This document shows, piece after piece, positions 3,813 through 55,206 of a stretch of DNA of 64,000 nt. The notes under the pieces are model-generated. The model saw only the letters and a list, made by a program, of their open reading frames with translations, did no database searches and was not told the origin of the DNA. The stretch is taken from contig JBGTEY010000014.1 in the NCBI GenBank assembly GCA_041747555.1, positions 20,919 through 84,918 on the forward strand. Direction: 5' to 3'. The position numbers were made by a program, and so were the translations under genes. This DNA is from Patescibacteria group bacterium. GTDB taxonomy: Bacteria > Patescibacteriota > Microgenomatia > UBA1400 > PJMF01. Within the stretch, counting starts at the first letter, position 1; each line of letters opens with the position of its first letter.

Positions 3813-5450
3813 TTATTCCAAAACAGTTTGCCCAGTTGGTAGTAAATTTACAAAATGTTCCGCTGTGCTAATATCCAGATTTGATGGATCAATACTCACT
3901 TCTAGCAACATGCCTCGCCTTGTTTCTGGACTAAAGTACTGATCAAACACAAAATTTCCCAGTGAATAATAGATCATTTTTTCTTTGTACACCTCTGATG
4001 GCTGGATAACATGAGGATGCGATCCAATGATGATATCTGCACCTTCGTCAATAAACCGATGCGCCAAGGATTGAATGGACGGATTTATTTCTGTGCTGTA
4101 TTCCACTCCCCAATGGGTATACAAAATAACCACATCTACTTGTGGTCGCACTAGTTTTAAATCATTCATTGTAGATTCAAACGCATTAGACGAAAATTCA
4201 TTGTAGTTAACAAATCCAATTTTCATCCCTTGAATATCTTTGGTAAAGTAGCTTTGATCAATTTCTGTGCCAACATTTCCAAAAAAACCAACGGATGATG
4301 CATTGAGGTAGTCAAAGGTTTGTGTCAATCCAGCCTGCCCAAAATTTAGAGTGTGATTGTTGCCCAAATTGACAATCGTAATGTTGTGATCTGATAAAAC
4401 TGCTGCTGTCTCTGGAGGTGAAGTAAAAATATAATTATTGCTTGCACCAAACGCACTCCCTTCACTTACCGATGCATTGTCTGTAATTGGGCTTTCAAGG
4501 TTAACCACCACGTGGTCAAATTCATGAAAGAAATCTCGTACATCTTGCAAAATAAAGTCATAACTTTTTTGCTTGGCAATCTGTCTAATATAACGATCAA
4601 ACGATAGATCACCAGCAAACAGCAACTTAATCTTTTCAGGTTGGACAACTACTCTTTCTCCCCTTTCATGGGTTCTTACTCCCTGTCTTGCAGGCCACTT
4701 CATTACAAAATAACTAGTGGTGCTGTCTTGCACATGATTAAACTGACTTGAGTTACCGTGAAAAATAATTTCAGGACAGCCTGATGAATATTCTTTGATT
4801 GCTTCTAATTGCAATAAAATATATACACAAGCAGGACAATCCAGGTAGTCATCACTGAGCTGTAAAGCTTCCTCAACTTGATGATTGCAAATCATCGATC
4901 GAGTTGTTACATCTAGTGAAGTTGCTTGTCCAACATCTAAATAATGAGAAAAATCTACTGACGCTAAAATCATCGTGGGTTGTTGCTGCACCTCTAGGTT
5001 GAGTCGATCAGTTAGTTCGTCTAACGCATCCTGAGGTACATTTCTAGTTACTAAATAATTCTCCACCTCTGCATGGGGAAAATACTGCTTAATATATGGC
5101 CAGTGAATGGTAGCTCCGTGGTCACCCTCAACTACTGTGTCGTCAGTCACAAGATAGTTTATATCTGGTTGATGATGGTTGGGAGATAGTAGTATTATTT
5201 TTTTAATCGTACTACCCTGGTTCGCAGAAATATTTTGATAGAAATCGTCAAATCGATCGAGTAATACGTCATGGTGTGGCAAGATTACTGCTTGTGGTAG
5301 CAACTGGGGTGATGATTGTGGCAGCGTGTTTTCTTGACTCGGGACGAAGTATATTTTTCCAAACAAATACACCAGAAACAGAAAAGCAAACAAACCTAGA
5401 ATTACTAGAAAATACTTAGACAGGCGGGGCATTATCGGGAGGCGTGGCAT
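3813..5450 (-). CDS. membrane-anchored CapA/PgsA-family metallophosphoesterase with an extra N-terminal domain
   Basis: C-terminal CapA motifs VDVVILYTHWGVEYS...GADIIIGSHPHVIQP...YYSLGNFVFDQ; N-terminal TM helix; 35-bp overlap with the upstream giant ORF, consistent with an operon. Confidence 0.65.
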   Translation of the reverse strand: MPRLPIMPRLSKYFLVILGLFAFLFLVYLFGKIYFVPSQENTLPQSSPQLLPQAVILPHHDVLLDRFDDFYQNISANQGSTIKKIILLSPNHHQPDINYLVTDDTVVEGDHGATIHWPYIKQYFPHAEVENYLVTRNVPQDALDELTDRLNLEVQQQPTMILASVDFSHYLDVGQATSLDVTTRSMICNHQVEEALQLSDDYLDCPACVYILLQLEAIKEYSSGCPEIIFHGNSSQFNHVQDSTTSYFVMKWPARQGVRTHERGERVVVQPEKIKLLFAGDLSFDRYIRQIAKQKSYDFILQDVRDFFHEFDHVVVNLESPITDNASVSEGSAFGASNNYIFTSPPETAAVLSDHNITIVNLGNNHTLNFGQAGLTQTFDYLNASSVGFFGNVGTEIDQSYFTKDIQGMKIGFVNYNEFSSNAFESTMNDLKLVRPQVDVVILYTHWGVEYSTEINPSIQSLAHRFIDEGADIIIGSHPHVIQPSEVYKEKMIYYSLGNFVFDQYFSPETRRGMLLEVSIDPSNLDISTAEHFVNLLPTGQTVLE

Positions 5451-8400
5451 CTTTTGTAAATTTTGAAAAGTGCCTTGGTTTCTTGATCCAAATTCCGTAC
5501 CCTGCTACAGGAATGAGCACTAGGATGCCAGCCACTATCCATTTCCATGAAAAAGGAAGTGAAGACTTTGCAGGGGATGGTAATTCTCCAGAAGGAAAAC
5601 TATTCTGAATAGCCAGCAATTCAAGAGAATTCTTTCCATCAATCACTAACTGGCTCGCATTGCTTCTAGCCCATAAAGTAGGGTCAAAAGAGTGCCTTAC
5701 TATCGCTGGTGGAGTATCAAAAGTCCCCTGCGAAATAACCCGAGCCTTATATCTGAATGTACTTACATCTTGGTCTGTGTAACTAATTTTCAGCTCTACA
5801 GTTTGTCCACTTATTTTTATTTGACCGAACTGGTTTTTGCCGACATTGTCAAACACGCCATTATCAAGTGACTCATCAATAGCAACTAAACCAGATGGGA
5901 GATAGTCAATTATTTCTAAATTTCTTTCTCCCAATCCTAGATTTTTAACCGTAAGCTCAACTACCACTAAGTCACCAACTTCAATTGGCTTTTCATTCTT
6001 ACTAGCTGACAAATACTTGCGACTAATTTCCAGATGATTGCTCTCACTTTCAGCCGCCCTATCAGTAATAAACTCAGTTGTTTTTACTGTCGAGTACACT
6101 GGTGATTCACCTTGATGCGTTATCTTCAATTGTCGGTCTGTAATCCCACCTACCTCAAAGGGAATTTCTACGACTTGTTCATCGCTTGATTTGAAAGTAC
6201 CTGATCTCATCACTTGATCATCCACCGACACTGTATAAGCAAGTTCTTGACTTGAGTCTGTGTAATACGCGAGGTATTCTGCGATACTTCTGATAAGAGA
6301 ATAAGAGGCCTGCTGATCACGATTTCGATACAAGAAATCTAAACCTTTTTCTACTATTTCTTGATCTGCTTTGAGTTCTATTAATGCTGCCACTGCGCGT
6401 GAAGAGTTCTTATAAATCCCACCGAATCTAAACGTTTGATCAGCTGGCCATGACAATTGATACGAGTTTTCAAACTTAAGATCGAGAATTTGTTGAATTG
6501 CAGCGGACTGATCCACAAATCCCTGGCGATAATTTGCCATAATTGCCATTAGAGCACGTTCCACATTAGTAGACGAATTGACCTCCAGATAGTGTCTCGA
6601 CAAGTCTAATTCCGGTGTTAATGAAAAAGCATATTGCTGCATGACTTGATCTTCATACTTGTTTGGTTGCCACTTTGCAAAGTATTCAATAACTGTGTTG
6701 AGTGTATTTTGATCAACAACGATCCCTGACTTACGAGCAAAAATTAATGCCTCTAGGAATTCTACTTTTTGTTCAGAACCGGTAAAGTTTTTCCAGGACT
6801 GATCTGATTCAAATGATTCAACCAACGTATGTATACTATTTTGAGCAAGTTCCTGATTTTGAGCGGAACTGTATTCAAGATTTAGCTCTGACCCAAACTG
6901 CTCACCAATTGCAACCATGGATAAAATAGCTGGAGCATTCGAAAAATATATACTTTCAGTTACTAAAATAGTCTGCCAGTCAGACTTAAATTCGGGATAT
7001 TTATTTGCTTGCAACGTTAGCACTGTTTGCGTTTTATCGCTCACAGCTCCAGTAGAAACTGGTATGTCATACGTCTGTTGATTTTCACCTAAAAGGTAGC
7101 TGTCTTGCCAAAAACCATATTCATATACGGGAATCTCATGGAAAACCTCATCGATATACTCATTTTGCCCTGTTGTTTGTGCCCTAACATGAAATGTTGC
7201 TGGACTCTGTTGACTAGTAATTTCTACTGGCCAACTCAGCGCCTCCAAACCTTTTGCAGCCAAAAGCAAAGGTTGTCCAGTTACCTGAAAATCTGAGAAA
7301 TTGAGACTAGCATCAATTTCTAAATTTAAATCTTGGTCAGTAAAATTATTAAGTAACGCTGATACATGTAAAATATCACCTTGCCTCAAGAAAGATGGCA
7401 TCACAGGCCTGACCACTAATTCTTTGGTTACAATAAACTCATCTTCACCTGAACCAACTTGTGTTTTTTGATTCGCTGATACCCCAGCAATAACCCAAGT
7501 TGTTAAATTGTCTGGCAGCTGAATGGTAACTCTTGCCTTACCCTCAGCATCAGTGGCAACATGCGGGTTCCAATATGCAGTATCTTTAAATATTGACCTA
7601 CTATCACCCTTATCATTGTGTACATAAATCCCATTTGCAATAAATGTGTGGTATGTATCAACAGTTAGGTTGTATACTGAGAATTTTCCCCGCATCCACT
7701 CAATAGAAGAAACGCGCTCTGTAAGACCTTCTGCTGTGGTCAATTCGTCACCAACTTTGAGTTGACCGGCTGTCTGCCACTTACCATTCACTAATAACTT
7801 ATGTTCTGGAGTAATTTTTAAATCTTGATTGATAATGAGATACCCATCTACCTCAACCAGATGAGTGTCGGTAACTTGTGCAGAGACAAGCTCATCACTA
7901 GTGCTCGATTTTAACGTTTGTATCCAGTCTCCTGTTTTGACCTGACTTATTTCTTTGAGTGACGAATCTGACATTAAAATTGAAGTATCTGCTGCAAAAC
8001 AACCTCCGCCACCTTCTGCTCCTGAGCTTGATAATCCCTCGAAGGAGTGATGCAGCAGCGGGAAGGTGTATCGCTCGCCCCAGAATGTGTCGAAAATTCT
8101 CCCGTAATTATCCCTGTTCAATTCCAGCAACGCCTTATCAAACACCCATACACTGACGTCTGTTTGAACTGGATTGCCTAGGGCATCTTTGGCAGCTATG
8201 TCCACTATTGCTGTTTGAGCAGGACCATATATTTCTTGATCAAAATCAAATGTAAGCTCCACCTTCTTATCGTCGGTACTAACCTCAACATCTTGACTTC
8301 CTTGCACCCAATAATCACCAACAAAACTGCCGGCTGCCACGCGAACATTGGGCTGATAGTCTTCTGGAATAGTGAGTGAGAACTGCTTACTACCGTTGGT

Positions 8401-10524
8401 CAGAACTTGGTACGTTTTGGAATAACTTCGTCCCACATAGACAAACAGATCTTGAGACTCAAAGCTGGGAAGTAACGTAATTGTAGCAGTTTCTCCAGGT
8501 GCATAACTGTCTTTGTCTGTTTCTATATCAATTTTTTCTCCACCCATAATTGAGTTTTTTACTTCTTCTGTTCTGACATAAAAATGCATATCACCTCTTA
8601 TGACATTGTCATGCTTATCTCGAGCTTCAAACTCAATCTCGTGACTGTCAGATTTTTTGGGGGTGTAACTCATAGTTACCTCACCCTCATTATTAGAAAT
8701 CAGGCGTTGAGCTTCACCCACCGGAAATCTTTTGTCTCCTGAATGTATCTCATAAACTTGCGCGGAAACTTCTATTCCATTCGTATCAACGCCTGCTTTT
8801 GTTGGCAAAATGTTTATAGAAAAATTACTATTTTTACTAATTACGTGAGAATTATTACGGTTTGAAGGGTTTTGTTCGATTACAAAATCACCTGGATTTA
8901 TCAAAATTTGCCTGGCATCGTTTGTGGCTGTCCCAGTCGCATCTACATACTCCAAAACAATAGCCCACATTTGCCGATAGCCTGTGGTATTTTTCACATC
9001 TATCTCTAGGTCAGCGACACCATTTTTATCCAACTGCAGACTACCTTGTGCAATTATTGGACTTCGTGCACCGAAATCAGTAACGCTGGTATTGAAAGTG
9101 ATTCCTTCATAATGACCATCTAGACTTGCTTTATACTGGTACACTTTATATCTCACTGTTTGATCGCTCAACGGTTGACCCAAAAAATAGCTACCCTTAG
9201 CCTGAGCCTTGAATGTATCGCCTGGATAATATGTATGCTCTTCTAGATGTAATGAAATTTCGCTATCAGGCTTACGAAACTCAGCTACCTGAACTGACGT
9301 TCCGGTTAAATATGTATCACCGTCATAAACTGTTAAACTGTAATATCCCACTTCCAAATCATCGGGTAAGCTGATTTCATGATCAATTGTTCCCAAATCA
9401 TCAATTAATAATTGCGCTTCATACAAATTATTTTGCCCATTTTGACCTCCAGATAATACTGCTCTCACTTGACCACTTGGTAATGAATACGAAGCATCAT
9501 CATCTGTGCGAAAAATTGCCTTGTAATACAGTGTGTCTCCTGGCTTGTAGATAAAACGGTCAGTGAAAATGAATGATTTTTTGTCAATTATTCTTGGCCC
9601 GAAAGAGTAATACGAACCATTTTGATTGCGATGCGCAAAACCATTGAGGTTAATCGGCACAATTGTCAGGGAGTTATTATGAGAAACAATGGCAATGTCC
9701 AATGCATCACTCGCTGCCACTTCAACAATGCCTTGATCATTGGTGGACACGTCTCCCAGAGTTTTCACGGTGTCTTGTGTATTTAAGAGCTTGATCTTTG
9801 CATCAGCAACGAGCTTTTTATCACTATCTTGTACCCAGAACGTAATTTTGTTATCAGATTTATTTGCTACGCCCGCCAGTGACGATCTTACAATTACTGT
9901 TTTAATTTTTTGGTCTTGGTGCGTTCCCTCTAGATACCATATGCCCTCCTGCTCTAAGTCGAGGTTTGGCCGAGACTGGTGATCCTGGCTTGAATCACCA
10001 CCAATTTGCTGATTAAACGTTGAAACGAGCTCAAGTTGATTCGTATCGAACTCATACAATTTTTTTAATTGGCTTCCATACCAGCCCTCACTTTCTTTAG
10101 ATGAATAGCGGAGATAATTAAGTAAATCTTCTTCATTGATCTTATATAAACTAAAATTTACTTCTTCTTTAAAGTTCCAGGAGCGAATTTCAACGACCGG
10201 CTCCATAGCGCTACTCAGAACAATTACACCTTCATTCATGTTTCTACCAATATTGGATGTAAAGTAAACACTATCGCTTAAGCCAAGCACATCGCCCTCG
10301 GGTTTTTCTGCGATCGGTTGCGGTGAAGCAGTGACAGCTTTAAAGCGAGGTGGCGGTGAGGATTGCTCCACCCTTGCCCCTGTATTAGAAAAATAGTTTT
10401 GAGTCAAATAGATTGATGTTGAGCTAGAAACTACGATGCTGACGACCACAAATAAAAAAAGAACGGTAGGTAAGCGCGAGAAGTGCATCAGCGCACTCTG
10501 TAGTTTCTTTTTTTCGGGAGACAT
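5416..10524 (-). CDS. giant (1702 aa) alpha-2-macroglobulin-like surface protein with an inserted Hint (intein/Hedgehog-like) domain and N- and C-terminal TM anchors
   Basis: A2M_N_2/MG7-like segment 'FKDTAYWNPHVATDAEGKARVTIQLPDNLTTWVIAG'. Alpha/alpha-toroid region with degenerate thioester site AIGEQ (canonical CxEQ). Hint blocks CFAADTSILM ... TPEH ... VYNLTVDTYHTFIANGIYVHN. Hydrophobic helices at both termini. Confidence 0.7.
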   Translation of the reverse strand: MSPEKKKLQSALMHFSRLPTVLFLFVVVSIVVSSSTSIYLTQNYFSNTGARVEQSSPPPRFKAVTASPQPIAEKPEGDVLGLSDSVYFTSNIGRNMNEGVIVLSSAMEPVVEIRSWNFKEEVNFSLYKINEEDLLNYLRYSSKESEGWYGSQLKKLYEFDTNQLELVSTFNQQIGGDSSQDHQSRPNLDLEQEGIWYLEGTHQDQKIKTVIVRSSLAGVANKSDNKITFWVQDSDKKLVADAKIKLLNTQDTVKTLGDVSTNDQGIVEVAASDALDIAIVSHNNSLTIVPINLNGFAHRNQNGSYYSFGPRIIDKKSFIFTDRFIYKPGDTLYYKAIFRTDDDASYSLPSGQVRAVLSGGQNGQNNLYEAQLLIDDLGTIDHEISLPDDLEVGYYSLTVYDGDTYLTGTSVQVAEFRKPDSEISLHLEEHTYYPGDTFKAQAKGSYFLGQPLSDQTVRYKVYQYKASLDGHYEGITFNTSVTDFGARSPIIAQGSLQLDKNGVADLEIDVKNTTGYRQMWAIVLEYVDATGTATNDARQILINPGDFVIEQNPSNRNNSHVISKNSNFSINILPTKAGVDTNGIEVSAQVYEIHSGDKRFPVGEAQRLISNNEGEVTMSYTPKKSDSHEIEFEARDKHDNVIRGDMHFYVRTEEVKNSIMGGEKIDIETDKDSYAPGETATITLLPSFESQDLFVYVGRSYSKTYQVLTNGSKQFSLTIPEDYQPNVRVAAGSFVGDYWVQGSQDVEVSTDDKKVELTFDFDQEIYGPAQTAIVDIAAKDALGNPVQTDVSVWVFDKALLELNRDNYGRIFDTFWGERYTFPLLHHSFEGLSSSGAEGGGGCFAADTSILMSDSSLKEISQVKTGDWIQTLKSSTSDELVSAQVTDTHLVEVDGYLIINQDLKITPEHKLLVNGKWQTAGQLKVGDELTTAEGLTERVSSIEWMRGKFSVYNLTVDTYHTFIANGIYVHNDKGDSRSIFKDTAYWNPHVATDAEGKARVTIQLPDNLTTWVIAGVSANQKTQVGSGEDEFIVTKELVVRPVMPSFLRQGDILHVSALLNNFTDQDLNLEIDASLNFSDFQVTGQPLLLAAKGLEALSWPVEITSQQSPATFHVRAQTTGQNEYIDEVFHEIPVYEYGFWQDSYLLGENQQTYDIPVSTGAVSDKTQTVLTLQANKYPEFKSDWQTILVTESIYFSNAPAILSMVAIGEQFGSELNLEYSSAQNQELAQNSIHTLVESFESDQSWKNFTGSEQKVEFLEALIFARKSGIVVDQNTLNTVIEYFAKWQPNKYEDQVMQQYAFSLTPELDLSRHYLEVNSSTNVERALMAIMANYRQGFVDQSAAIQQILDLKFENSYQLSWPADQTFRFGGIYKNSSRAVAALIELKADQEIVEKGLDFLYRNRDQQASYSLIRSIAEYLAYYTDSSQELAYTVSVDDQVMRSGTFKSSDEQVVEIPFEVGGITDRQLKITHQGESPVYSTVKTTEFITDRAAESESNHLEISRKYLSASKNEKPIEVGDLVVVELTVKNLGLGERNLEIIDYLPSGLVAIDESLDNGVFDNVGKNQFGQIKISGQTVELKISYTDQDVSTFRYKARVISQGTFDTPPAIVRHSFDPTLWARSNASQLVIDGKNSLELLAIQNSFPSGELPSPAKSSLPFSWKWIVAGILVLIPVAGYGIWIKKPRHFSKFTKDATPPDNAPPV
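7615..8001 (-). other. Hint / bacterial intein-like domain (129 aa) embedded in the giant ORF
   Basis: Cys codon at 7999-8001 is preceded by GGGG (Hedgehog-like G|CF site); the domain ends HN-D at 7612-7620; block B TxxH is present. Confidence 0.7.
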
Positions 10525-16374: not shown

Positions 16375-18030
16375 TTATCGATCTATAATAACAGGCACAA
16401 TCATCGGTTCTCTGCGAATGATGCTAAAGAGTTTGCGAGCCAAACGCTTTTCGATCTCTTTACGGAGAATTTCGTCTGATTTTTTACCAAATTTTTCAAT
16501 GGTCTCGATGGTGCTTTCATGGATGAAGTTGATTACTTCTTCTGCTTCTTTCATGAAGACAAAACCTCTTGAGACAATTTCTATTTGATCGAGTAAGAAT
16601 TCGTCATTATGTCTGGGAATTACCAGCACGATAATTCCTGACTCACCCATTGCGCGACGATCAGATAGGACAATTGGTCCCACATCACCTACGCCGAGTC
16701 CGTCAACAATTTGAGGTTTGAGGATGATTTTCTCTGCTGTTCGAGGTGCACCAAGACCAAATTCGAGGATTTCTCCTTTTTCTGGTATCAAAACTGATTG
16801 CTCGTTGTAGCCGAGTGGTTCTGCGACTTTTTCTAGAAATAGCACTCTGTGACGATCTGCGCCACCCATGGGGAAAAGATACGTTGGATTGAGTGTTCTG
16901 ACCATTTCTTGTTGTTCTGGTGCGCTAGCGTGACCAGATTGATGAAGACCATCTTGAATTGCTGGATACACCACGTGAATTCTGTTTCTACATAATTCAT
17001 CGATGGCAGCATAGTATGGCAATTCATTACCTGGAATGGCATCAGCCGAGAAAACTACTGTATCATTTGGTGAAATTCTGAGCGCACGGTGTTCTCCGAA
17101 AATTGCACGCACCAATGACGAGCCTTCTTGACCTTGACTACCTGCAACGATTACACAGAGTTGTTTGTCTGCATAATTTGAAAGTTTTCGCTTGTCGACC
17201 ATAACTCCGGCTGGAATAGTAATTTTGTTCAGACGAAGTGCAACTTCTATATTTTGTTCGACAGATCTGCCAATAAATGCAACTTTTCTGCCTTGAGCAA
17301 CAGCTGCATCAACGACTTGTTGAATTCTATGCAAATGCGAGCTCATAAGTGTGATGACGTATTTACCCTCAGTTTTCATCATGATGTCAGAAAGTACGGG
17401 GCCAACGGTTGACTCTGAAGGAACCCAGTTTGGATTCTCTACACGTAAACAATCGAGCAACATGCAGGTAATGCCATTTTCTGCAGCTTCTGTAATTCCC
17501 CGTATATCGGTTAAAATACCATCTACAGGCGCGGGATCAAGTTTGTAATCTGAACCATGATAAAACGTCCCCGCCTCACAGGTAACCAAAATATGTCGGG
17601 TATCAGGCACAGAATGCGTAACTGCAAACAACTGAATCGTGAAGCCACCGAGCGTAAATTCGTTAGAGTGATCGACAACATTGACGGTTCGCTTTGCTTG
17701 ACTTTCTTTCATGCGATCTTCAGCAAAACCGGCAGTCAGTGGCGATGCATAGATTGGAAACTCTGGTAACGCAGGCAGTAGATATGCGAGTGCACCAATA
17801 TGGTCGTCATGGCCATGGGATAATACCATTCCAACTACTGTCTTGCCTTGTTCTATTTTTTTTAAAAGATATGAAATATCTGGGATGAGAATATCTGCTC
17901 CCGGCATGTAATGATCGGGAAATCCAATTCCACAATCAATGATCAAAATTTCTTGATCCATTTCATATAAAAACATATTTTGGGTGACACCACCCATTCC
18001 TCCAAGAGGAACTATTTTAAGTGTATTCAT
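16375..18030 (-). CDS. rnj: ribonuclease J (metallo-beta-lactamase / beta-CASP)
   Basis: LSHGHDDHIGAL motif; length 551 aa. Confidence 0.85.
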   Translation of the reverse strand: MNTLKIVPLGGMGGVTQNMFLYEMDQEILIIDCGIGFPDHYMPGADILIPDISYLLKKIEQGKTVVGMVLSHGHDDHIGALAYLLPALPEFPIYASPLTAGFAEDRMKESQAKRTVNVVDHSNEFTLGGFTIQLFAVTHSVPDTRHILVTCEAGTFYHGSDYKLDPAPVDGILTDIRGITEAAENGITCMLLDCLRVENPNWVPSESTVGPVLSDIMMKTEGKYVITLMSSHLHRIQQVVDAAVAQGRKVAFIGRSVEQNIEVALRLNKITIPAGVMVDKRKLSNYADKQLCVIVAGSQGQEGSSLVRAIFGEHRALRISPNDTVVFSADAIPGNELPYYAAIDELCRNRIHVVYPAIQDGLHQSGHASAPEQQEMVRTLNPTYLFPMGGADRHRVLFLEKVAEPLGYNEQSVLIPEKGEILEFGLGAPRTAEKIILKPQIVDGLGVGDVGPIVLSDRRAMGESGIIVLVIPRHNDEFLLDQIEIVSRGFVFMKEAEEVINFIHESTIETIEKFGKKSDEILRKEIEKRLARKLFSIIRREPMIVPVIIDR

Positions 18031-18863
18031 TTTTTCCTTTCACTTTTTTTCTTAAAATCTTTCATAACTTGTAATCTAAAATCCCAGTCCGGATGCTTCA
18101 ATTTTCCTGAAAGCTTCTCGAATCCTGTTTTGAAACGATATGATTTGTAGGTGAAGAATGACAAACTGGTTGCTGTACTAAATAGTATCAAACTACCCCA
18201 GAAAAAACTATGTTCAATATCAAAGGGAGGAGTCCAGATTAAGTATATTGTAACATGAATGACGAACAGCGATGCGATGGTGAGCTTCATAAGGCGAGTG
18301 AAACTGTGTTCGTGCTGCCTGGGATCTGATAACCAAATTGCCAAAAAAAGGGCGACACCAAACAATCCTCCAAGTACCAATGCCGCATAAAAATTCCATC
18401 GCGCTAATTCAAACGGTATCGGTAACTCAAAATACGCGTTTGCAATCGCTACCAAACTAATCAGGACCATACTCCCCACAAACATCACAATATGCGTAAT
18501 CCAGAGGTGAAAATATTCAGATAACTTAAAAAGGTCATAGAGTGGATCGCGCTTCCGTTGCAAATTAAAGCTTTTGGTCAAAGCATGCATCACCACAAAC
18601 CCAAACACATACATTGCAATCACGCTAAACAACGTATCCCAAAAAAATATTTCATTTTGTGTGAGCGTACTATCAATTTCTTCTTTTAGTAAAAAGAAGA
18701 AAAAACTCTTTCCCCAGATAAAAAGTAACGGAGCAATAATGAACGCATAATAGAACTGCACCGTATCTAACTTGAGAATTTCACTCTTACCATTGAGTTG
18801 ATACAAAACAGCCGAGCTGACAATTGCCAACACGGGAACAATAATAAGGAGAAGTGGTAGCAT
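18027..18863 (-). CDS. polytopic membrane protein of unknown function
   Basis: About 8 TM helices; no Cys; overlaps the rnj start by 4 bp. Confidence 0.5.
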   Translation of the reverse strand: MLPLLLIIVPVLAIVSSAVLYQLNGKSEILKLDTVQFYYAFIIAPLLFIWGKSFFFFLLKEEIDSTLTQNEIFFWDTLFSVIAMYVFGFVVMHALTKSFNLQRKRDPLYDLFKLSEYFHLWITHIVMFVGSMVLISLVAIANAYFELPIPFELARWNFYAALVLGGLFGVALFLAIWLSDPRQHEHSFTRLMKLTIASLFVIHVTIYLIWTPPFDIEHSFFWGSLILFSTATSLSFFTYKSYRFKTGFEKLSGKLKHPDWDFRLQVMKDFKKKSERKK

Positions 18864-18906
18864 AGTAACGTGTCCCCGATTTTGATTTCAACGCCTGAAT
18901 TTCTTG

Positions 18907-19971
18907 TTAATATTGCGGCAAGAAAATCTTTTTGTTTTCGGGGTTTATTATAACTTCTGAGTATCCTTTTTCTACGATGATTCGAGCGACTTTTCGGACC
19001 GCGCCTTCTAAAGTCCGCTGTAAGGTACGAATTCCAGCGTCATACCCAAGTGGACGGGTAATTGCCGGCCAAACTTCATCGCTCATGATAAATTGATTTG
19101 GTTTGAGACCTGCGTCCTCAAGAAGACCAGGGAGAATGTACTTCTTGGCAATGACGATTTTCTCGTGGTCGGTATAGGACGGCATGGTGATCTTTTCCAT
19201 ACGGTCCATAACGGCTGTAGCAATATCCCCAGTATTATTGGCTGTAGCAAGGAAAATTGCATGTGATAAATCGATTGGATAATCGAGATACAGATCACGA
19301 AATGCATGATTCTGAGCGGGGTCGAGAAGTTCAACCAAAACACCCATGATGTCCCGATTAGCTTCTTTATTCACACGGTCAATCTCGTCTAGGAGAATGA
19401 CCGGATTTCTCACACCCTGCTCACATAAGCCTTTAATTATCCGACCCGGCTCTGACTCAAGATACAATCTGGAATTACCGCGCAGTTCTGCCGATGATCC
19501 CATTCCGCCAAACGGTACACGAACGAGCTTTCTGCCGAGCGCTTCTGCAAGTGAAATGGCAAACGTGGTTTTACCGGTACCTACCAAACCGACAAGTAAT
19601 AGAATTGGAGCGCGAAATTCGCTCTCTTGAAACTGGGTATCCCTAAGCTTGAGTACCGACACGTACTCAAGAAATCTATTTTTAACCTGCTGCATTCCAA
19701 AATGGTGTTTGTCAAAAATTGCTTTGGTGTGCTCTATGTCGAGCACATCTTTGCTTTCCTCGTGCCAAGGCACTTTGAGTGTCCAGTCAATATATCGAGA
19801 TACTTTTTCGTATTTTTCATCGTAACTACCCAGAGCCACACTTCTTTCTAGTGCAATAATGTCTTTATTGACCTTTCGCAGCATTTCTTCGGGTAGGGAT
19901 GCCTGCGAAACCTTACCTTTGAGCTCTTCTATTTCTTGCTTGAGTAGCTGAGTGTAATCCTGGTCCATCAT
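18907..19971 (-). CDS. Lon-type AAA+ ATPase module lacking both the LAN N-domain and the protease domain
   Basis: Walker A GLVGTGKTT, sensor and arginine-finger regions collinear with the Lon AAA+ module. The ORF stops right after the alpha-helical lid, with no PKDGPSAG serine-protease domain present. Confidence 0.7.
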   Translation of the reverse strand: MMDQDYTQLLKQEIEELKGKVSQASLPEEMLRKVNKDIIALERSVALGSYDEKYEKVSRYIDWTLKVPWHEESKDVLDIEHTKAIFDKHHFGMQQVKNRFLEYVSVLKLRDTQFQESEFRAPILLLVGLVGTGKTTFAISLAEALGRKLVRVPFGGMGSSAELRGNSRLYLESEPGRIIKGLCEQGVRNPVILLDEIDRVNKEANRDIMGVLVELLDPAQNHAFRDLYLDYPIDLSHAIFLATANNTGDIATAVMDRMEKITMPSYTDHEKIVIAKKYILPGLLEDAGLKPNQFIMSDEVWPAITRPLGYDAGIRTLQRTLEGAVRKVARIIVEKGYSEVIINPENKKIFLPQY

Positions 19972-28996: not shown

Positions 28997-29491
28997 CTAT
29001 TGTACCAGGAAACCCTCAACAATCATGTCTTCTGCAGCAGCTTTAGAAATACCACGGCTTTGCAGATAAAAAATCTGCTCCTCTGGGATTCGACTCACAC
29101 TTGCCGCGTGAGAGCACGATACGTCATCGGTTAGAATTTCTAGATCAGGAACAGCTTCTGCTGTTGCTTGGTCAGAAAGCAGTAAAATTCGTTCAGTCAA
29201 AAACGAATGACTATTCCCACATTCGGGATCAATAATAATCCGACCCACAAATCTAATCGAAGATTGATCGCGTCCAACACCCTTGAGTGTCGTGCGAGCT
29301 TGGGTATTGGGGGCTTTGTGATGGATCACCACCTCCACAGATTTTTTTTGATCATTTTTGGCTTCAAAAACGCCAGAAATTGTAACTTCTGCGCCTGATT
29401 TAGTAAGTTCAACGAGATACTCACCTGGTTTTTCCAAAATAATTGGTTTTGCATCTGCAGAATCGATAGTAAAAATTGTCGGCTGTATCAC
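28997..29491 (-). CDS. sufD: short SufD-like Fe-S assembly protein
   Basis: C-terminal SufB/D signature ...EEQIFYLQSRGI...; overlaps the sufB stop. Confidence 0.6.
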   Translation of the reverse strand: MIQPTIFTIDSADAKPIILEKPGEYLVELTKSGAEVTISGVFEAKNDQKKSVEVVIHHKAPNTQARTTLKGVGRDQSSIRFVGRIIIDPECGNSHSFLTERILLLSDQATAEAVPDLEILTDDVSCSHAASVSRIPEEQIFYLQSRGISKAAAEDMIVEGFLVQ

Positions 29492-30912
29492 CCAATACTC
29501 CCTTCCATCTCATGGTCGATTAGTCTATTCATCTCCACCGCATACTCAAGCGGCAATTTACGCACCAAATCATCAATAAATCCATTGACAATTAATTTTC
29601 GCGCGTCTTCTTCGCTCACACCTCGACTCATTAGATAAAATAGTTGGTCATCCCCAATTTTGGAAACAGTTGCCTCGTGCTGCACTTCCACCTGAGAGTT
29701 AAAAATTTTATCCACAGGGTACGTGTCAGATCTCGATTTTCCATCAAGCAACAGCGCGTCACAAATCACCGTATTTTTACTATGATGAGCCTTTGGACCA
29801 ATGCTGACCAAACCACGATAACTCGTGCGCCCGCCATCTTTACTAATCGACTTAGAAACTATCGTTGAACTGGTATAAGGCGCTAAATGAATCGCTTTTG
29901 AGCCCGTATCTTGATGCTGACCAGCTCCTGCCAGCGCCATCGATAACGTCTCACCACGAGCACCTTTACCTGCCAAAATAAAACTCGGGTACTTCATCGT
30001 CACCTTAGAACCCATATTAAAATCAGTCCACACCATCTCACCTTCTTCTTCTACCCAAGCACGCTTGGTCACCAGGTTATAGACATTTTTGTACCAGTTT
30101 TGAATGGTGGTGTATTGGCAGCGAGCACCTTTTTTAACAAATATTTCTACGACTGCAGAATGCAACGAGCCACTTGAGAAATTAGGGGCCGTGCACCCTT
30201 CCACATAATGCACCGATGCGCCTTCATCCACAATAATCAGCGTTCTCTCAAACTGCCCTGCATTTTCAGAATTAATCCGAAAATACGTCTGTAGCGGCAT
30301 TTTTACCTGTACGCCCTTAGGAATATATACAAATGAACCACCAGACCACACCGCAGAATTAAGCGCAGCAAAGACATTGTCACCGGCAGGAATTATTTTA
30401 CTAAAATATTCTTTGACTAAATCAGGATACTGCGCTAAACCTTCATCCATTGATAAAAATACCACGCCGTCTTTGGCAAAAACATCTTTGAGCGAGCCGT
30501 ACACCACTTCACTATCGTACTGAGCTTTCACCCCTGCCAAAACTTCGCGTTCAGCCTTGGGAATTCCCAATCTTTCAAATGTTTCCTTGACATCTGCCGG
30601 GACATCATCCCAAGTTTTACCCGGTGCATCCATTGGTTTAAGGTAATAGTGAATATCATCAAAGTGAATTCCCGACAAGTCTGCACCCCAGGGAGGCATG
30701 GACTTTGCCTGATATTTTTTGAACGAATCCAATCTAAAATCGAGCATCCATTTTGGCTCGTTTTTCATACTTGAAAGCTCATGAATCACGCGGGCATCTA
30801 GGCCGGGTTTGGTTATATGTGAATATGAATCGGTACTGAAAGAATACCCATGTTGGTACTCGTCTTTTTCGGTTTCGAAGGTGCTGGTTTTTTTCTGTGC
30901 AAATCGTGCCAC
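29488..30912 (-). CDS. sufB: Fe-S cluster assembly protein SufB
   Basis: 474 aa; the C-terminal motif DQLFYLMSRGVSEEDARKLIVNGF is diagnostic. Confidence 0.9.
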   Translation of the reverse strand: MARFAQKKTSTFETEKDEYQHGYSFSTDSYSHITKPGLDARVIHELSSMKNEPKWMLDFRLDSFKKYQAKSMPPWGADLSGIHFDDIHYYLKPMDAPGKTWDDVPADVKETFERLGIPKAEREVLAGVKAQYDSEVVYGSLKDVFAKDGVVFLSMDEGLAQYPDLVKEYFSKIIPAGDNVFAALNSAVWSGGSFVYIPKGVQVKMPLQTYFRINSENAGQFERTLIIVDEGASVHYVEGCTAPNFSSGSLHSAVVEIFVKKGARCQYTTIQNWYKNVYNLVTKRAWVEEEGEMVWTDFNMGSKVTMKYPSFILAGKGARGETLSMALAGAGQHQDTGSKAIHLAPYTSSTIVSKSISKDGGRTSYRGLVSIGPKAHHSKNTVICDALLLDGKSRSDTYPVDKIFNSQVEVQHEATVSKIGDDQLFYLMSRGVSEEDARKLIVNGFIDDLVRKLPLEYAVEMNRLIDHEMEGSIG

Positions 30913-35898: not shown

Positions 35899-38271
35899 CT
35901 ACCGTCTCGGACCTCTTGAGCCGCGGTCTCTGTCGCCACCTCGTGAGCCGCCACGGTTGCGATCGCCACCTCTGTAGCCGCCGCCACGTGAGCCACCTCT
36001 AGATCCGCCGCGGTCGCCGCCGCGATCTCCTCTATCACCGCCGCCGGAACGTTGTGGTTGCTTACTCTCTTCTTCTTCAGTGAGCATGGAGAGGCCGATT
36101 TTGCCGTCTTCTTTAATCTCGCTAATTCTAACGTGAGCCTTGTCGCCGACATTTACTAGATCTGCAGCGTCATTGACGTACTCTGTGGACATTTTTGAGA
36201 CATGGACTAATCCTTCTCTGCCAGGTAAGTATTCGACAAAAGCGCCGTAACTTTCTACTCTAGTAACGATTCCATCAAATGCTTCACCGACTTCCATAAC
36301 ACGCATCATGTTATTGATGAATGTGGTGGCAATGTTGATTTTTTCCTGATCTGGAGAAGAGACATTGACTAAGCCAACTTTCTTTTCCTCGTCTTCATCA
36401 ACGTTGATGTCAGCGCCGGACATTTCGATAATGCTCTTGATCATCTTTCCACCTGGACCGATCAATTCACCGATTCGCTCTTGAGGAATGGTTAGTTGAA
36501 CAATTTTTGGCGCAAACTGTGAAAGTGCGGTTCTTGGTTCTGAAATACCCTTGAGCATTTCAGCCATGATGTGCATTCGACCAGTGTGTGCTTGAGACAA
36601 TGCTTGTTCTAAGATGCTTTTTGGCAATCCTTTGAGTTTGATGTCCATTTGAATTGCGGTGATGCCCTCTGAGCTACCCGCAACCTTGAAGTCCATGTCA
36701 CCGACGTGGTCTTCAAGACCTTGAATGTCAGAAAGTACTCTGAAGGTCTTGCCATCTGAGACTAATCCCATAGCGATTCCAGCGACTGGGCGCTTGATTG
36801 GAACACCTGCAGCCATGAGTGACAAGGTTGATCCACAGACTGAAGCCTGGGATGTTGAGCCATTTGAACTCATGATTTCTGAGACAACGTGAATTGCATA
36901 CGGGAACTCTGCCTGAGACGGGATCATTGGCAGGAGTGCGCGCTCTGCGAGCGCGCCATGCCCAATTTCCCTTCGCTTCGGCCAGCCAATTCGACCAGCT
37001 TCTCCAGAAGCGTACGGAGGCATGTTGTAGTGGTGCATGTAGTGACGGGTTTCTTCGCCTTCAATACTCTCGATCAATTGACCAAGTGAAGGGTTGCCAA
37101 GTGTTGTAACGGTAACAGCTTGAGTAGCACCCCGTTTAAACATTGCTGAACCATGGGTTCTTGGAAAGACATCAACTTCTGTCCAGATTTCTCGAATTTC
37201 ATCGAGTCCTCGGCCGTCGGGACGGGTTGCGTCATCAATGATCATCTTACGAGCACCGAGCTTGAGTGAGCCGTAGACTGCACTTCCAATTTCTTTTTCG
37301 GTGTAGAGATCTTCTTCGTCTCGACCTTTGTTGAACTCTTCAAGTAATTTGGCTTCAAACTCATCGAGCTCAATAGCTTCTAGAGAACCCTTTTTCTTGG
37401 TAAGTGCTAGAATTTCTGCGGTGTGAGCCTCAAAAACAGCTTGGGTGAGTTCTTCTTGTCGTTTGTTCTGAGCAACTTCTGCTTCAGTGAGTAACTCAAC
37501 TTTCTCTTTACCGATCTCTTTGACAATTGCTTCAATATCCTTTGAAATTTTGCCAATTTCTGTCTGAGCTAAGGTGAGCGCCTCAATCATGATTGACTCT
37601 TCAATCTCATTTGCGCCAGCCTCGACCATGACGATTGCATCATGAACACCAGAAACAATTAAGTCTAAATCGCCAGCGTCTCGATTTGCATAGGTTGGGT
37701 TAATCTCAAAATTCTTGGTTGACTTAGTGTATCCAACTCGAACACCACTCAATGGACCGTCGAAGGGAATTTCTGAAATTGCCAAAGCAATGCCACTTCC
37801 AAGAAGCCCAAGCATATCAGGATCATGTTCTCCATCAAATGAGAAAACGGTGTTTACAACTTGCACTTCATTGGTAATTCCATCTGCAAACATTGGTCTG
37901 AGTGACCGGTCAATAACACGTGCTTTTAGAATTGCATCGTCGGTTGGTTTGCCGTCTCTTTTGACCCAACGGGAGCCTTTAATAACTCCAGCGGAATATA
38001 ATTTTTCAATAAATTCAACTGAAAGTGGGAAATAGCCAAGATTGACTTTTCTGCCAAGTGCAACCGTTGTATGAACGATAGTTTCACCACATTGGACGAG
38101 CACTGCTGCGCTGACTTGTTGTGAAAAGCTACCAACGGTAATTTTTACGGTTTTGTCACCAATTTTTAGGTCTTTGGTGTAGACGTCTGGGTATACAGGG
38201 TATGACATGTATTCCTTCTCCTGCCTCAACAATCGTCGTGGATTTTGAAGAGTACTCCGGAGAGGAAACAA
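35899..38271 (-). CDS. pnp: polyribonucleotide nucleotidyltransferase (PNPase) with C-terminal RGG/GDR repeat tail
   Basis: Two RNase PH domains, KH and S1 domains; tail GGDRGDRGGDRGGSRGGSRGG... Confidence 0.9.
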   Translation of the reverse strand: MFPLRSTLQNPRRLLRQEKEYMSYPVYPDVYTKDLKIGDKTVKITVGSFSQQVSAAVLVQCGETIVHTTVALGRKVNLGYFPLSVEFIEKLYSAGVIKGSRWVKRDGKPTDDAILKARVIDRSLRPMFADGITNEVQVVNTVFSFDGEHDPDMLGLLGSGIALAISEIPFDGPLSGVRVGYTKSTKNFEINPTYANRDAGDLDLIVSGVHDAIVMVEAGANEIEESIMIEALTLAQTEIGKISKDIEAIVKEIGKEKVELLTEAEVAQNKRQEELTQAVFEAHTAEILALTKKKGSLEAIELDEFEAKLLEEFNKGRDEEDLYTEKEIGSAVYGSLKLGARKMIIDDATRPDGRGLDEIREIWTEVDVFPRTHGSAMFKRGATQAVTVTTLGNPSLGQLIESIEGEETRHYMHHYNMPPYASGEAGRIGWPKRREIGHGALAERALLPMIPSQAEFPYAIHVVSEIMSSNGSTSQASVCGSTLSLMAAGVPIKRPVAGIAMGLVSDGKTFRVLSDIQGLEDHVGDMDFKVAGSSEGITAIQMDIKLKGLPKSILEQALSQAHTGRMHIMAEMLKGISEPRTALSQFAPKIVQLTIPQERIGELIGPGGKMIKSIIEMSGADINVDEDEEKKVGLVNVSSPDQEKINIATTFINNMMRVMEVGEAFDGIVTRVESYGAFVEYLPGREGLVHVSKMSTEYVNDAADLVNVGDKAHVRISEIKEDGKIGLSMLTEEEESKQPQRSGGGDRGDRGGDRGGSRGGSRGGGYRGGDRNRGGSRGGDRDRGSRGPRR

Positions 38272-47478: not shown

Positions 47479-47561
47479 AATTTTGTAAGTATATATTTTG
47501 TATGTGTACGCGGGTAGCGTATCATATTTTAGCAGTCATTGCAAGTGATTGCTAATAGGTT

Positions 47562-47954
47562 TTATTTAATTTCTTGTGATATCTGATAGAGCCAATTCCA
47601 ACCATTTTTAGTTATTCCTTTTGAAGGTGTATTCTTTCGGATCAGCTGAAGCTCATTTGTAATGACGTCAAATACTTTTTCTGTATAGGCTTTCTCAAGT
47701 ATTGCATTGATCAGATTATGAATCGCTTCATAGACCTTGGGGTACTTATAAATTTTAGCACCACCAAGCTGAGATTGAAAAAATGACTCATTTAGTTGAC
47801 TTTCTCCAAACGGAGAATAATTCTTCAACGCATCAAGCAGCATGTCCTGCCGATATCGCATATATAACACATTCTTTTCAAGCTCTGCTTCAGTCATTTC
47901 TGCTGAAGTAGCTACACTAGCACCACCATCATGTATAATTTCTGCGGTCATCAC
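47562..47954 (-). CDS. hypothetical protein (130 aa) inserted between grpE and dnaK
   Basis: ORF whose start overlaps the grpE stop by 4 bp. Confidence 0.45.
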   Translation of the reverse strand: MMTAEIIHDGGASVATSAEMTEAELEKNVLYMRYRQDMLLDALKNYSPFGESQLNESFFQSQLGGAKIYKYPKVYEAIHNLINAILEKAYTEKVFDVITNELQLIRKNTPSKGITKNGWNWLYQISQEIK

Positions 47955-48793
47955 TCCACCTCCCCCAACACCACTTTTGCGTGCTGAATCACAGAATCAT
48001 ATAACCGATAGCCGTCTTGAACAACTTTGATAACTATATCACCCGAACCATTTTTATCCACAGCTTCCATCGTTTCAATATCAAATTTCTTGCCAAGGAC
48101 GTCAATTTTTTGGAGTCCGTGATTTTCGAGCGCTTGCTTGAGTTGTTGGACCACCATGCTCAAACCAGTGTCGTCAATTTGCTTCGCTGCCAAATCGAGA
48201 AGACTGAGTGGTTGCAGCAGGTCTTCCACGACTTGTTGGGTTGCATACTTGGCGAGTTTGCCTCGTTCTTCTGCGGTTCGTCGTTGGAGATTGCGATAAT
48301 CTGCAAGTGCTCGTTGTTCCTTTTGGTGAGCCAAATTGAGTTTAGCTGCATCTGTTTTGGCTTCGATGAAGGCGTTGATGTCACGAAGTACGCCTGGGTC
48401 TTTCACGAGTTTCAAGGCTTTATCTAGAGTTACCCATTGATATTCCTGATGCTCATGACTTAACTTCACTTCCTGGTCAGGTGTTTGACACCAATACGTC
48501 AAGCCAATCACTTCATTTTCTGCACGCTTCTCACCTCTGTAAAAATGCCAACCAGTGAGTAATCTCACGAATTCAATATTCTTAATGCCCGTTTCTTCTC
48601 GAATTTCTCTCCTCAAACCAGCTTCAGGATCTTCACCCTGGTCAATTCGGCCGTAGCCAGTTTCCCAAATGCCTGGCTTATAGTTATCCTCAGAACGCTG
48701 CAAAAGTAATATCGTTTCAGTTTCTGGGTGCTCAAGAATTGCTCCCGCCGCAACCATAAAAGTGCCAATATCTGTAGGTGTATCAGATTTCAT
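47951..48793 (-). CDS. grpE: Nudix-domain / GrpE fusion protein (nucleotide exchange factor)
   Basis: N-terminal Nudix box GYGRIDQGEDPEAGLRREIREETGI. C-terminal GrpE features: helix ...ADYRNLQRRTAEER... plus a beta-domain ...VVQDGYRLYDSVIQHAKVVLG. One uninterrupted 280-codon frame. Confidence 0.7.
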   Translation of the reverse strand: MKSDTPTDIGTFMVAAGAILEHPETETILLLQRSEDNYKPGIWETGYGRIDQGEDPEAGLRREIREETGIKNIEFVRLLTGWHFYRGEKRAENEVIGLTYWCQTPDQEVKLSHEHQEYQWVTLDKALKLVKDPGVLRDINAFIEAKTDAAKLNLAHQKEQRALADYRNLQRRTAEERGKLAKYATQQVVEDLLQPLSLLDLAAKQIDDTGLSMVVQQLKQALENHGLQKIDVLGKKFDIETMEAVDKNGSGDIVIKVVQDGYRLYDSVIQHAKVVLGEVE

Positions 48794-49542: not shown

Positions 49543-49569
49543 TTAGCAATACTAATGGCTGTTTGCTAA
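49543..49569 (-). promoter_or_regulatory. CIRCE-like operator (TTAGCAATA-N9-GTTTGCTAA)
   Basis: Imperfect 9-bp inverted repeat with a 9-bp spacer, 23 bp upstream of the hrcA start; consensus is TTAGCACTC-N9-GAGTGCTAA. Confidence 0.55.
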
Positions 49570-53268: not shown

Positions 53269-55206
53269 TTATCTGGCTGGTTTTGCTTTTGGAATCCCCA
53301 TGAGTTTGGAAAAATCATCAGCATCGAGGCTTTCCACATCAATCAATTTAACTGAAACTGACTCGAGGGTAGTCTTGTATTTCTTAAGAAGTTTAATGGC
53401 ATTATCTTGACACAGTTCTATGATTTCTCGCGTTGCTGCGTCGATCTTTTCTTGCATGGAGTCAGAAACCTTGATTGCTTCGCCCCAAGCTTGACCATAT
53501 TCGCTCGATTCATACATAGGATCAAAATTCATGGGACCAAGTTCGCTCATCCCGTACTCCATGACCATGGCTCTGGCGATGCGGGTTGCTTGCTTGATGT
53601 CATTGCTGGCACCTGCAGTTTGCTCGTTGAAAACCAGGAGCTCTGCAGCTCTGCCACCCATCATGACGGTTATGCGGTCGAGGAGTTCTGATTTTGTAGT
53701 CTGTAGTTTGTCTCTTTCTGGAGGAGTCAGGGTGAAACCAAGTGCTCTACCTCTAGAAACGATTGAAATTCTGTGGACTGGATCTGCGTGGGGAAGGACG
53801 TGGGCAATTATTGCGTGGCCTGCCTCGTGATACGCGGTCATTTCTTTTTCTAAATCATCTTGAAGTCGTTTCTTGCTTGGACCAAGCTTAACCTTGAGAG
53901 ACGCTTCTTCGATGTCAGCCATGGTTATCTTTTTGCGCGCTTCGCGCGCAACCGCAATCGCCGCCTCATTCAACATATTCTCAATATCAGCACCAGAAAA
54001 TCCAACCGTTCTCTTGGCTACTTTTTCCCATTCCACAGCCTTGGTAAACGGTTTATTTTTGGCATGAATAGAAAGAATATATTTCCGCTCTTCTAAATCG
54101 GGCAATTGCACCACCACGCGTCGATCAAACCGCCCCGGTCGAACCAGCGCTGTATCAAGCATATCGCCTCTATTAGTCGCCGCCATCACGATTACATTGT
54201 CGTTTGCCTCAAATCCATCCATTTCAACCAAAATCTGATTGAGTGTTTGCTCGCGCTCATCATGTCCACCCATATTTCCCATACCGCGACTTCTGCCAAT
54301 GGCGTCAATTTCGTCGATAAAAATAATGGAAGGTGATAGTTTTTTAGCAGTGGTAAAGAGATCGCGCACACGCGAGGCACCCACACCAACTAACATTTCC
54401 ATAAACTCACTACCTGCAATTGATAAGAACTGGACACCAGCTTCGCCTGCAACTGCACGAGCAAGTAATGTCTTACCGGTACCAGCAGGACCAACTAACA
54501 GTACGCCTTTAGGGGTTCTCGCGCCGACTTTAGTATATTTCTTAGGGTGTTTCAAAAAATCAACAATTTCCTCAAGTTCTTTCTTGGCCTCATCCATACC
54601 GCCAACATCGTCAAATGTGGTGGACTGCTTGCCTTTGATAAAAACCTTGGCCTTGCTACGTCCAATGCCCATAATTCCATCTTGCCCACCTTTGGCTTGT
54701 CGGAAAATATACACAAAAAACAAAACCATCAGCAGTATAGGGAGAAAATTAATTACTACCTCCCAGAACAATCGTCCCGAAGACAAATTCTCAACTTCAA
54801 CGTTCACTTGATTTAAATCAATCCCTGCACTCTCAAGCACACTGACAGCTGACGATGATTCCTCGTTCTGAGCCATCCTGACACTACCGTCGTCATACAT
54901 GATTTTTAACTCTGAACCAGAAACTTCAATTTTCTCAACGCGATCCTCACGCACATCCGCCACGAGCTGACTCAAGGAAATCTTTTCTACAGATTCACCA
55001 GAAAAGGTAGATATCAGAAACGGAAGAAATAACATCGCCATAAAAAGATACAATAAACCGCGATTTATCCATTGTTTTTTGTTCATAGGAACTTGAAAAA
55101 AACTAGGGGATTTTTGCTGCTTCTTTTGACTTGAAATGTCTTTCGGTGATTTTGACGGAGTAGTATCTTCGGCCATATGTCTTTCTCTGAGGAGGTATTG
55201 TACCAT
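53269..55206 (-). CDS. ftsH: ATP-dependent zinc metalloprotease FtsH
   Basis: [13 protein letters not shown] Walker A, SRH region, HEAGHAI zinc site. Confidence 0.9.

Follow-up and report, generated by a model that had tools for sequence, protein, structure and literature searches.

The locus examined here raises the question of what a Lon motor does when it is encoded without its protease. The gene is an open reading frame (ORF) of 354 aa at positions 18907..19971, on the minus strand and closed by a TAA stop codon, in a 64-kb window (the whole stretch of 64,000 nucleotides that was analyzed). An earlier note on this DNA had called it a Lon-like AAA+ module lacking both the LAN and the protease domain, and this description is borne out by the motifs it listed (SLPEEM, GLVGTGKTT, LLDEIDR and GIRTLQRTLEGAVRKV, all there) and by every domain-level comparison we made. 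Pfam recognizes an AAA domain at aa 124-262 (19186..19602, minus strand; E 7e-17), corresponding to the AAA+ large alpha/beta subdomain, and a Lon_lid at aa 286-336 (18964..19116, minus strand; E 2e-8), with no match to LAN or Lon_C in the ORF. The NCBIfam model TIGR00763 'lon' aligns over model positions 252-571 of 795 only and scores 317.5 bits, below its equivalog cutoff of 608 bits. The closest solved structures are LonA chains, with residues 249-581 of 795 aligned in 7p6u (E 3e-72), and the best 50 PDB matches returned by Foldseek for an AF2 monomer model are all LonA chains. The ORF is thus the counterpart of LonA residues ~249-581 only, namely the three-helix bundle, the AAA+ module and the lid. 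Its N-terminus falls at about Lon residue 245, within the last helix ahead of the three-helix bundle (NTD3H), and its C-terminus lies a few residues into the linker that in Lon runs to the protease domain. By structure alignment, the N-terminal helix and three-helix bundle occupy aa 1-70 (19762..19971, minus strand), matching the LonA NTD3H. The reading frame opens with a tandem ATG ATG at 19966..19971, and orthologs begin MDQDY or MSDY; the true start may be the second ATG (19968), giving 353 aa. By Pfam, NCBIfam, structures and family searches, the whole ORF is a stand-alone Lon-derived AAA+ ATPase: a Lon-type AAA+ module without LAN and without protease domain.

Are the missing parts encoded nearby? 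From 58 full-length LonA representatives we derived two HMMs, one for the protease domain and one for LAN, and searched the six-frame translation of the 64-kb window with them, every filter off. No protease domain (best E 0.55) and no LAN domain (best E 0.72) was found in any frame of the window, and a six-frame search of 336 kb around 24 family members likewise returned no protease-domain or LAN-like frame, with no match of E < 1 to the protease-domain HMM. The protease is absent rather than frameshifted, as the note had proposed, and no separate ORF downstream in the window carries it. The other flaw that might have undone that proposal, a sequence gap at 18864-18906, is not there either, the spacer to the downstream gene being 43 bp of clean sequence without Ns. 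We give negligible probability to an assembly or sequencing artefact, or a frameshift splitting an ordinary lon: we found no point in its favor, and the clean junction, the lack of a protease-like frame downstream and the occurrence of the same gene with the same stop in independent assemblies (NCBI, ENA, JGI, Logan) all speak against it.

The same truncated architecture recurs across a large group of related genomes. In a search of 5.8 billion proteins, close relatives form at least 120 clusters of 352-389 aa that are 75-99% identical to the window protein; among the matches listed, named clusters come from the Microgenomates group, Woesebacteria and Pacebacteria. A second search, using a profile made from divergent stand-alone forms only, returned proteins of 342-388 aa in 119 of its best 120 clusters, and the named ones among the matches listed belong to Shapiro-, Gottesman- and Chisholmbacteria, 'Candidatus Microgenomates' and 'Patescibacteria group'. 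At least 12 GTDB species-genome loci, including Levybacteria and Shapirobacteria, also match the stand-alone form, with an ORF of 346-386 aa in the eleven where it was callable. Altogether, at least 240 clusters (Woese-, Pace-, Levy-, Shapiro-, Gottesman- and Chisholmbacteria) encode proteins of about 342-389 aa that stop at the same end residue. In a neighbor-joining (NJ) tree of AAA+ modules, the protease-less proteins (22 short forms and 4 others) group in a single clade, outside which fall 35 canonical LonA modules, 11 AAA-protease proteins and every tandem-AAA Lon module; no canonical group stands out in this tree as the specific sister of the clade.

Tandem-AAA Lons are themselves an observation from these searches: in many database proteins of 900-1700 aa from outside the window (P0121-P0163, P0309 and L092:645-3362), 2-3 Lon-type AAA+ modules in tandem, every one with a three-helix bundle and lid of its own, precede a single Lon protease domain. 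These proteins are without LAN, and some of the modules have degenerate Walker or sensor residues. We considered and rejected them as a Rosetta-stone link, in that P0309-like modules are of canonical type (46% identity to canonical Lon, 32-35% to the window protein, from high-GC sequence) and hence uninformative on the protease-less family.

Selection on the gene is equally telling. Against the ortholog of a species-level relative (L091), 5 of 354 residues differ at a nucleotide identity of 80%, with 82 of 139 four-fold degenerate sites (59%) changed, and omega is ~0.006 (about 5 replacements over ~800 non-synonymous sites, set against a four-fold-site distance of ~1.2). Between the same two genomes, RNase J is 90% identical, the downstream membrane protein 87%, PfkB 74% and a small secreted protein 68%. 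In comparisons with genomes at a greater distance, the ATPase retains 76-77% identity, against 58-62% for RNase J, 67-68% for FtsK and 37-40% for the membrane protein, making the Lon-like ATPase the most constrained gene of its block. The earlier note had entertained a degradation remnant and had suggested looking for the same truncation in relatives and for purifying selection; both were found, and together they refute it. That the gene is a pseudogene fragment, a decaying leftover of full-length lon, finds its sole support in the truncated architecture itself, and it is hardly credible next to identical ends kept in at least 240 clusters, full conservation of the catalytic residues (described below), an omega of ~0.006 in the most conserved gene of its neighborhood, and flanks free of protease-domain debris in the six-frame HMM search. 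The family is a conserved, strongly constrained, monophyletic Lon-derived stand-alone ATPase of Microgenomates, a group of ultra-small CPR bacteria. Lon is by definition a single-chain ATPase plus protease, and here a class-level lineage with minimal genomes retains the motor alone and holds it under more constraint than RNase J or FtsK; a protease-less motor so strongly constrained must have an essential job that does not involve cis proteolysis.

What that job may be can be approached through the residues that are kept and lost, which we counted in 121 close and 119 divergent sequences among the matches listed. K134 of Walker A (GLVGTGKTT, aa 128-136, 19564..19590), E196 of Walker B (ILLDEID, aa 192-198, 19378..19398), the sensor-1 N245 and the Arg finger R257 (19201..19239 for the stretch from one to the other) and the sensor-2 R315 in the Lon-type lid are invariant in 121/121 close and 119/119 divergent sequences, all on the minus strand and placed by the family alignment. 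The Walker B D195 is Asp in 120 of the 121 close sequences (Glu in the other) and in all 119 divergent ones. Judged from these residues, the nucleotide site is intact for both ATP binding and hydrolysis, including the trans-acting Arg finger, and we infer an oligomeric ATPase because a conserved trans-acting finger makes sense in oligomers only.

The pore is a different matter. Pore-loop 1 (RGNSRLYLESEPG, aa 164-176, 19444..19482, minus strand) aligns to Lon RGHRRTY(I/V)GAMPG, in which the Tyr position is Y in 65/65 canonical LonA representatives. Lon Y398, the pore-loop-1 Tyr, intercalates with the substrate during translocation and thereby grips it (PMC7239648). All stand-alone representatives instead read 'RGxS(R/K)xxx(D/E)(A/S)EPG', and the corresponding position 170 is occupied in the close family by H (31), I (26), Y (21), L (18), N (8) or V (7), between invariant flanks, and in the divergent set by R (53), H (41), Y (12), F (10) or Q (3). 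The window protein itself has Y170; as a conserved family feature, the pore-loop-1 aromatic is lost in these alignments. R168 of the loop is near-invariant in the family, and a hydrophobic residue usually sits beside the variable position (L169/L171, or V/L/A at 169 elsewhere), by means of which some substrate gripping may persist.

Conservation is retained, and in one case newly gained, away from the pore loop. The aromatic pair Y60/W63 of the NTD3H, equivalent to Lon Y294/W297, is invariant, and in Lon this pair packs onto the pre-sensor-1 hairpin (PMC7239648). Y50 does not vary in the close family, and 107 of the 119 divergent members have Y or F there; from an ungapped offset, Y50 would correspond to Lon M284, a pore residue at the NTD3H portal (PMC7239648). 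At the other end of the chain, the close family terminates in IFLPx[Y/F]-COOH in 121/121 sequences (IFLPQY-COOH, aa 349-354, 18910..18927, minus strand, in the window protein), and the divergent set ends in [F/Y][L/I/V]Px followed by a last residue that is W in 105, Y in 12 and F in 1. The alignments indicate that this terminal aromatic tail, [F/Y]-L-P-x-[W/Y]-COOH, is a derived feature conserved clade-wide.

From these features we propose, with about an even chance of being right, that the gene is a functional, vertically inherited housekeeping gene of the Microgenomates group of CPR bacteria, encoding a ring-forming ATPase that acts as a remodeller or in a chaperone-like manner without canonical threading. 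The N-terminal LAN and the C-terminal Ser-Lys protease would have been lost ahead of the radiation of the clade. The protein would still assemble into a ring and hydrolyze ATP, would no longer translocate polypeptides processively into a cis protease, and would instead serve as an ATP-driven remodelling or chaperone-like factor. Substrate contact may have moved to the aromatics at the three-helix-bundle portal and to the basic pore-loop residue, and the terminal [F/Y]LPx[W/Y]-COOH tail could make a contact on the face that is held by the protease ring in Lon, either ring-stabilizing or partner-docking. A generic chaperone or remodeller role is possible. Counting against the proposal, the AF2 monomer model is of moderate confidence (pLDDT 74), and the pore loop is disordered in it.

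A partner-docking tail also fits a two-component protease, in which the ATPase would be docked by its C-terminal [F/Y]LPx[W/Y]-COOH onto a separately encoded peptidase; candidates would be a protein with S16/Lon_C alone, a ring of the HslV or ClpP kind, or some other peptidase. The model for such an arrangement comes from the C-terminal tail of HslU and the HbYX tails of proteasomal ATPases. HslU would be the closest functional analogy overall, as both it and the window protein are stand-alone HCLR-clade AAA+ proteins with a conserved hydrophobic C-terminal tail soon after the lid. The HslU tail docks into HslV, and HslU retains its pore-loop aromatic. The window protein lacks the HslU I-domain, has no significant match to an HslU family model in Pfam or NCBIfam, and is accompanied by no hslV gene in the window or the related loci. 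That the aromatic residue stands at the extreme C-terminus clade-wide, exactly where the protease linker of Lon begins, points to docking, as does the family member P0145, which has an M23 peptidase gene 4 bp after the Lon-like gene and two M16 peptidase genes nearby upstream. We nevertheless regard a two-component protease as improbable: no Lon protease domain is present in the window or in the 336 kb around 24 family members, no peptidase recurs beside the gene, the window encodes no ATP-dependent protease besides FtsH, and the feeding of a degradation chamber is disfavored because the pore-loop Tyr is lost.

FtsH had been put forward in the earlier note as an example of a protease to which the module, acting as a chaperone or unfoldase, could hand its substrates. 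FtsH is indeed encoded in the window (53269..55206), and yet the hand-over is unsupported as stated, since the pore-loop-1 Tyr is not conserved in the family and since FtsH, 33 kb from the gene in the window, was found in none of the 24 related loci. Never co-localized with the gene in related loci, FtsH was rejected as a partner.

We then come to the neighborhood, which bears both on the remodeller or chaperone-like role proposed above and on an alternative to it. The window carries a long co-directional housekeeping array in which hrcA - (NUDIX-GrpE) - dnaK - dnaJ - nusA - infB - rpsO lead through pnp, sod and suf genes to rpiB - rpe - LOG - pfkB, and from there through the gene for a small secreted protein to the Lon-like ATPase, the membrane protein, rnj and ftsK. 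The next gene downstream encodes a polytopic membrane protein of 278 aa (18027..18863, minus strand) with no Pfam or NCBIfam match. It was rejected as a partner, being absent from L005, L008, L010-L019 and L087-L089 and reaching only 37-40% identity in comparisons that give 76-77% for the ATPase; it is a lineage-specific, fast-evolving and often absent protein and no obligate partner. Beyond it lies RNase J (16375..18030, minus strand), the most recurrent downstream neighbor, adjacent or 1-4 genes off. The series pfkB - ATPase - (family-4 UDG, methyltransferase) - membrane protein - rnj - ftsK is preserved in close relatives. The PNPase gene is the immediate upstream neighbor of the Lon-like gene in loci of the Levybacteria and Shapirobacteria types, and the order in Levybacteria-type and related loci is nusA-infB-DHH-rpsO-pnp-X-rnj-ftsK-rodZ-like, where X is the Lon-like gene. 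P0156 keeps the pnp...ftsK-rodZ frame without rnj.

This setting suggests an ATPase linked to nucleic acids, a component or regulator of RNA decay (PNPase, RNase J) or of DNA transactions (FtsK, UDG), whose basic, non-aromatic pore would work as in the related HCLR-clade motor RuvB. Five loci share the rpsO-pnp-X-rnj-ftsK order: in four (L010, L011, L015, L016), X is directly between pnp and rnj, and in the fifth (L019), one additional gene separates pnp from X. Spacers are short, 24-69 bp to pnp and -7 to 97 bp to rnj. X directly precedes rnj in L005, and in L017 pnp is directly upstream before the contig ends. Further loci have rnj 1-4 genes away (the window, L001, L003, L004, L007, L008, L090 and L091), and a family-4-type uracil-DNA glycosylase (UDG) gene directly follows the Lon-like gene in L001 (7139-7822), L004, L006, L007 and L008. 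The near-invariance of R168 and the frequency of R or H at position 170 are in keeping with such a role as well. We nonetheless consider it unlikely. Short spacers are weak evidence because CPR genomes are tightly packed and co-directional, and the synteny may only reflect a conserved core block running on as nusA-infB-...-ftsK-rodZ. Moreover, pnp is 16 kb away in the window (35899..38271, minus strand), rnj is missing from L012, L013, L087, L088 and L089, and Pfam finds no nucleic-acid-binding domain in the protein. The UDG gene is absent from the window; in the distant member P0155, it overlaps the Lon-like gene by 4 bp.

The two alternatives meet in a bolder idea, that Microgenomates replaced the Lon protease with a stand-alone Lon-derived motor whose mode of action would be new among Lons. 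It would now be either the ATPase half of a new two-component system, docked by the clade-specific [F/Y]LPx[W/Y]-COOH tail onto a heterologous partner, or an AAA+ component of a CPR RNA degradosome, its gene lying between those of PNPase and RNase J; we offer this idea as a speculation and doubt that it is right. An anti-phage AAA+ ATPase (IetA, DolB or TRIP13-like) was also considered and rejected, as the PADLOC matches are weak, partial and confined to the P-loop (E 6.5e-7 to 9e-4, 17-27 bits) and the neighborhood is a housekeeping one.

For the remodeller or chaperone-like ATPase that we favor, the neighborhood is mixed. The gene most often stands among genes of RNA decay and cell division (pnp, rnj, ftsK), not of proteostasis, which counts against this role. 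In L012, L013 and L089, the Lon-like gene is divergent from groES-groEL, a hint of a proteostasis neighborhood. We scanned for CIRCE elements with the pattern TTAGCA..N9..TGCTAA, allowing up to 2 mismatches per arm, and found none either near the Lon-like gene or within the intergenic regions at groES in L012 and L089, a further point against. The scan did find CIRCE-like inverted repeats at 47529..47555 and 49543..49569, just upstream of dnaK and hrcA. Across the window and 24 related loci, there is no recurrent partner, and no recurrent neighbor is a peptidase. A promoter scan around the gene did no better than on shuffled sequence, and a terminator scan found no minus-strand terminator between the gene and its neighbors.

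How, then, should the family be classified? LonA (endopeptidase La; MEROPS S16, TIGR00763; 7p6u from T. thermophilus, 3m6a from B. subtilis, 6on2 from Y. pestis) is 38-41% identical to the window protein over the three-helix bundle, the AAA+ large subdomain and the lid, and the two share Walker A and B, sensor-1, the Arg finger, sensor-2, the pre-sensor-1 hairpin region and the Y/W aromatic pair of the NTD3H. Unlike LonA, the window protein has no LAN, no long-helix N domain and no Ser-Lys protease domain. The protease-less family also differs in reading GL.G.GKT at Walker A where LonA has GPPGVGKT, in replacing TY(I/V)G of pore-loop 1 by S(R/K)xxx(D/E)(A/S)EPG with no conserved aromatic, and in its new terminal [F/Y]LPx[W/Y]-COOH tail. 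Of the features that define LonA, the AAA+ module and lid are therefore present, while the LAN, the protease domain and a score above the TIGR00763 cutoff are lacking, and the pore-loop aromatic is lacking at the family level, although the window protein has Y170. On these alignments, the family should be filed as a Lon-derived ATPase and not as a Lon protease.

Other departures from LonA run the opposite way. LonB, LonC, LonBA and Lon-like-Ms are Lon variants in which one module is lost or inactivated, LonB being without LAN and LonC having a degenerate ATPase (PMC9569914, PMC4864567). All four keep the protease, whereas in the window protein the ATPase is intact and the protease gone. The isolated AAA+ module of E. 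coli Lon (PDB 6n2i, titled 'DNA-binding ATP-dependent protease La') is similar in extent, its residues 10-337 corresponding to 13-349 of the window protein; 6n2i is an engineered piece of a full-length protease, and the window protein is a natural gene with nearly the same boundaries. Full-text searches of the published literature found no description of a protease-less Lon ATPase, and a search of NCBIfam found no curated family model covering these proteins. The family constitutes a natural experiment in which a Lon AAA+ ring lacks both the protease ring and the pore-loop tyrosine.

Database labels bear on how such proteins are read. NCBI calls the family 'AAA family ATPase', and IMG/JGI calls it 'ATP-dependent Lon protease', a label that is misleading; because of this name, work that reconstructs the metabolism or proteostasis of CPR bacteria may attribute Lon proteolysis to them in error. 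A separate matter of labelling concerns the source genomes of L008-L010, L013-L016 and L001 (GCA_020632265.1), whose public titles read 'uncultured Gammaproteobacteria' or 'Pseudomonadales bacterium' and which are Microgenomates/CPR by gene content and by the Lon-like family, in what looks like taxonomic mislabelling.

The window holds several other unusual genes. Inside the hrcA-grpE-dnaK-dnaJ operon, the ORF at 47951..48793 (minus strand) encodes an apparent NUDIX-GrpE fusion (NUDIX aa 12-128, GrpE aa 150-276). Two adjacent SufBD-core ORFs of 164 aa and 474 aa (28997..29491 and 29488..30912, minus strand) overlap at stop and start, and the shorter, confined to the C-terminal portion of the core, may be a sufD that is either truncated or mis-started. 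A bacterial alpha-2-macroglobulin of 1702 aa (MG2, A2M_BRD, A2M, bMG10) is encoded at 5416..10524 (minus strand) and carries a HINT/intein-like insertion (PT-HINT, Vint, Intein_splicing) at aa ~841-971, where it separates the bait region from the A2M domain. Finally, a PrnB/indoleamine-2,3-dioxygenase-like protein, unusual for a reduced CPR genome, is encoded on the plus strand at 61262..62404.
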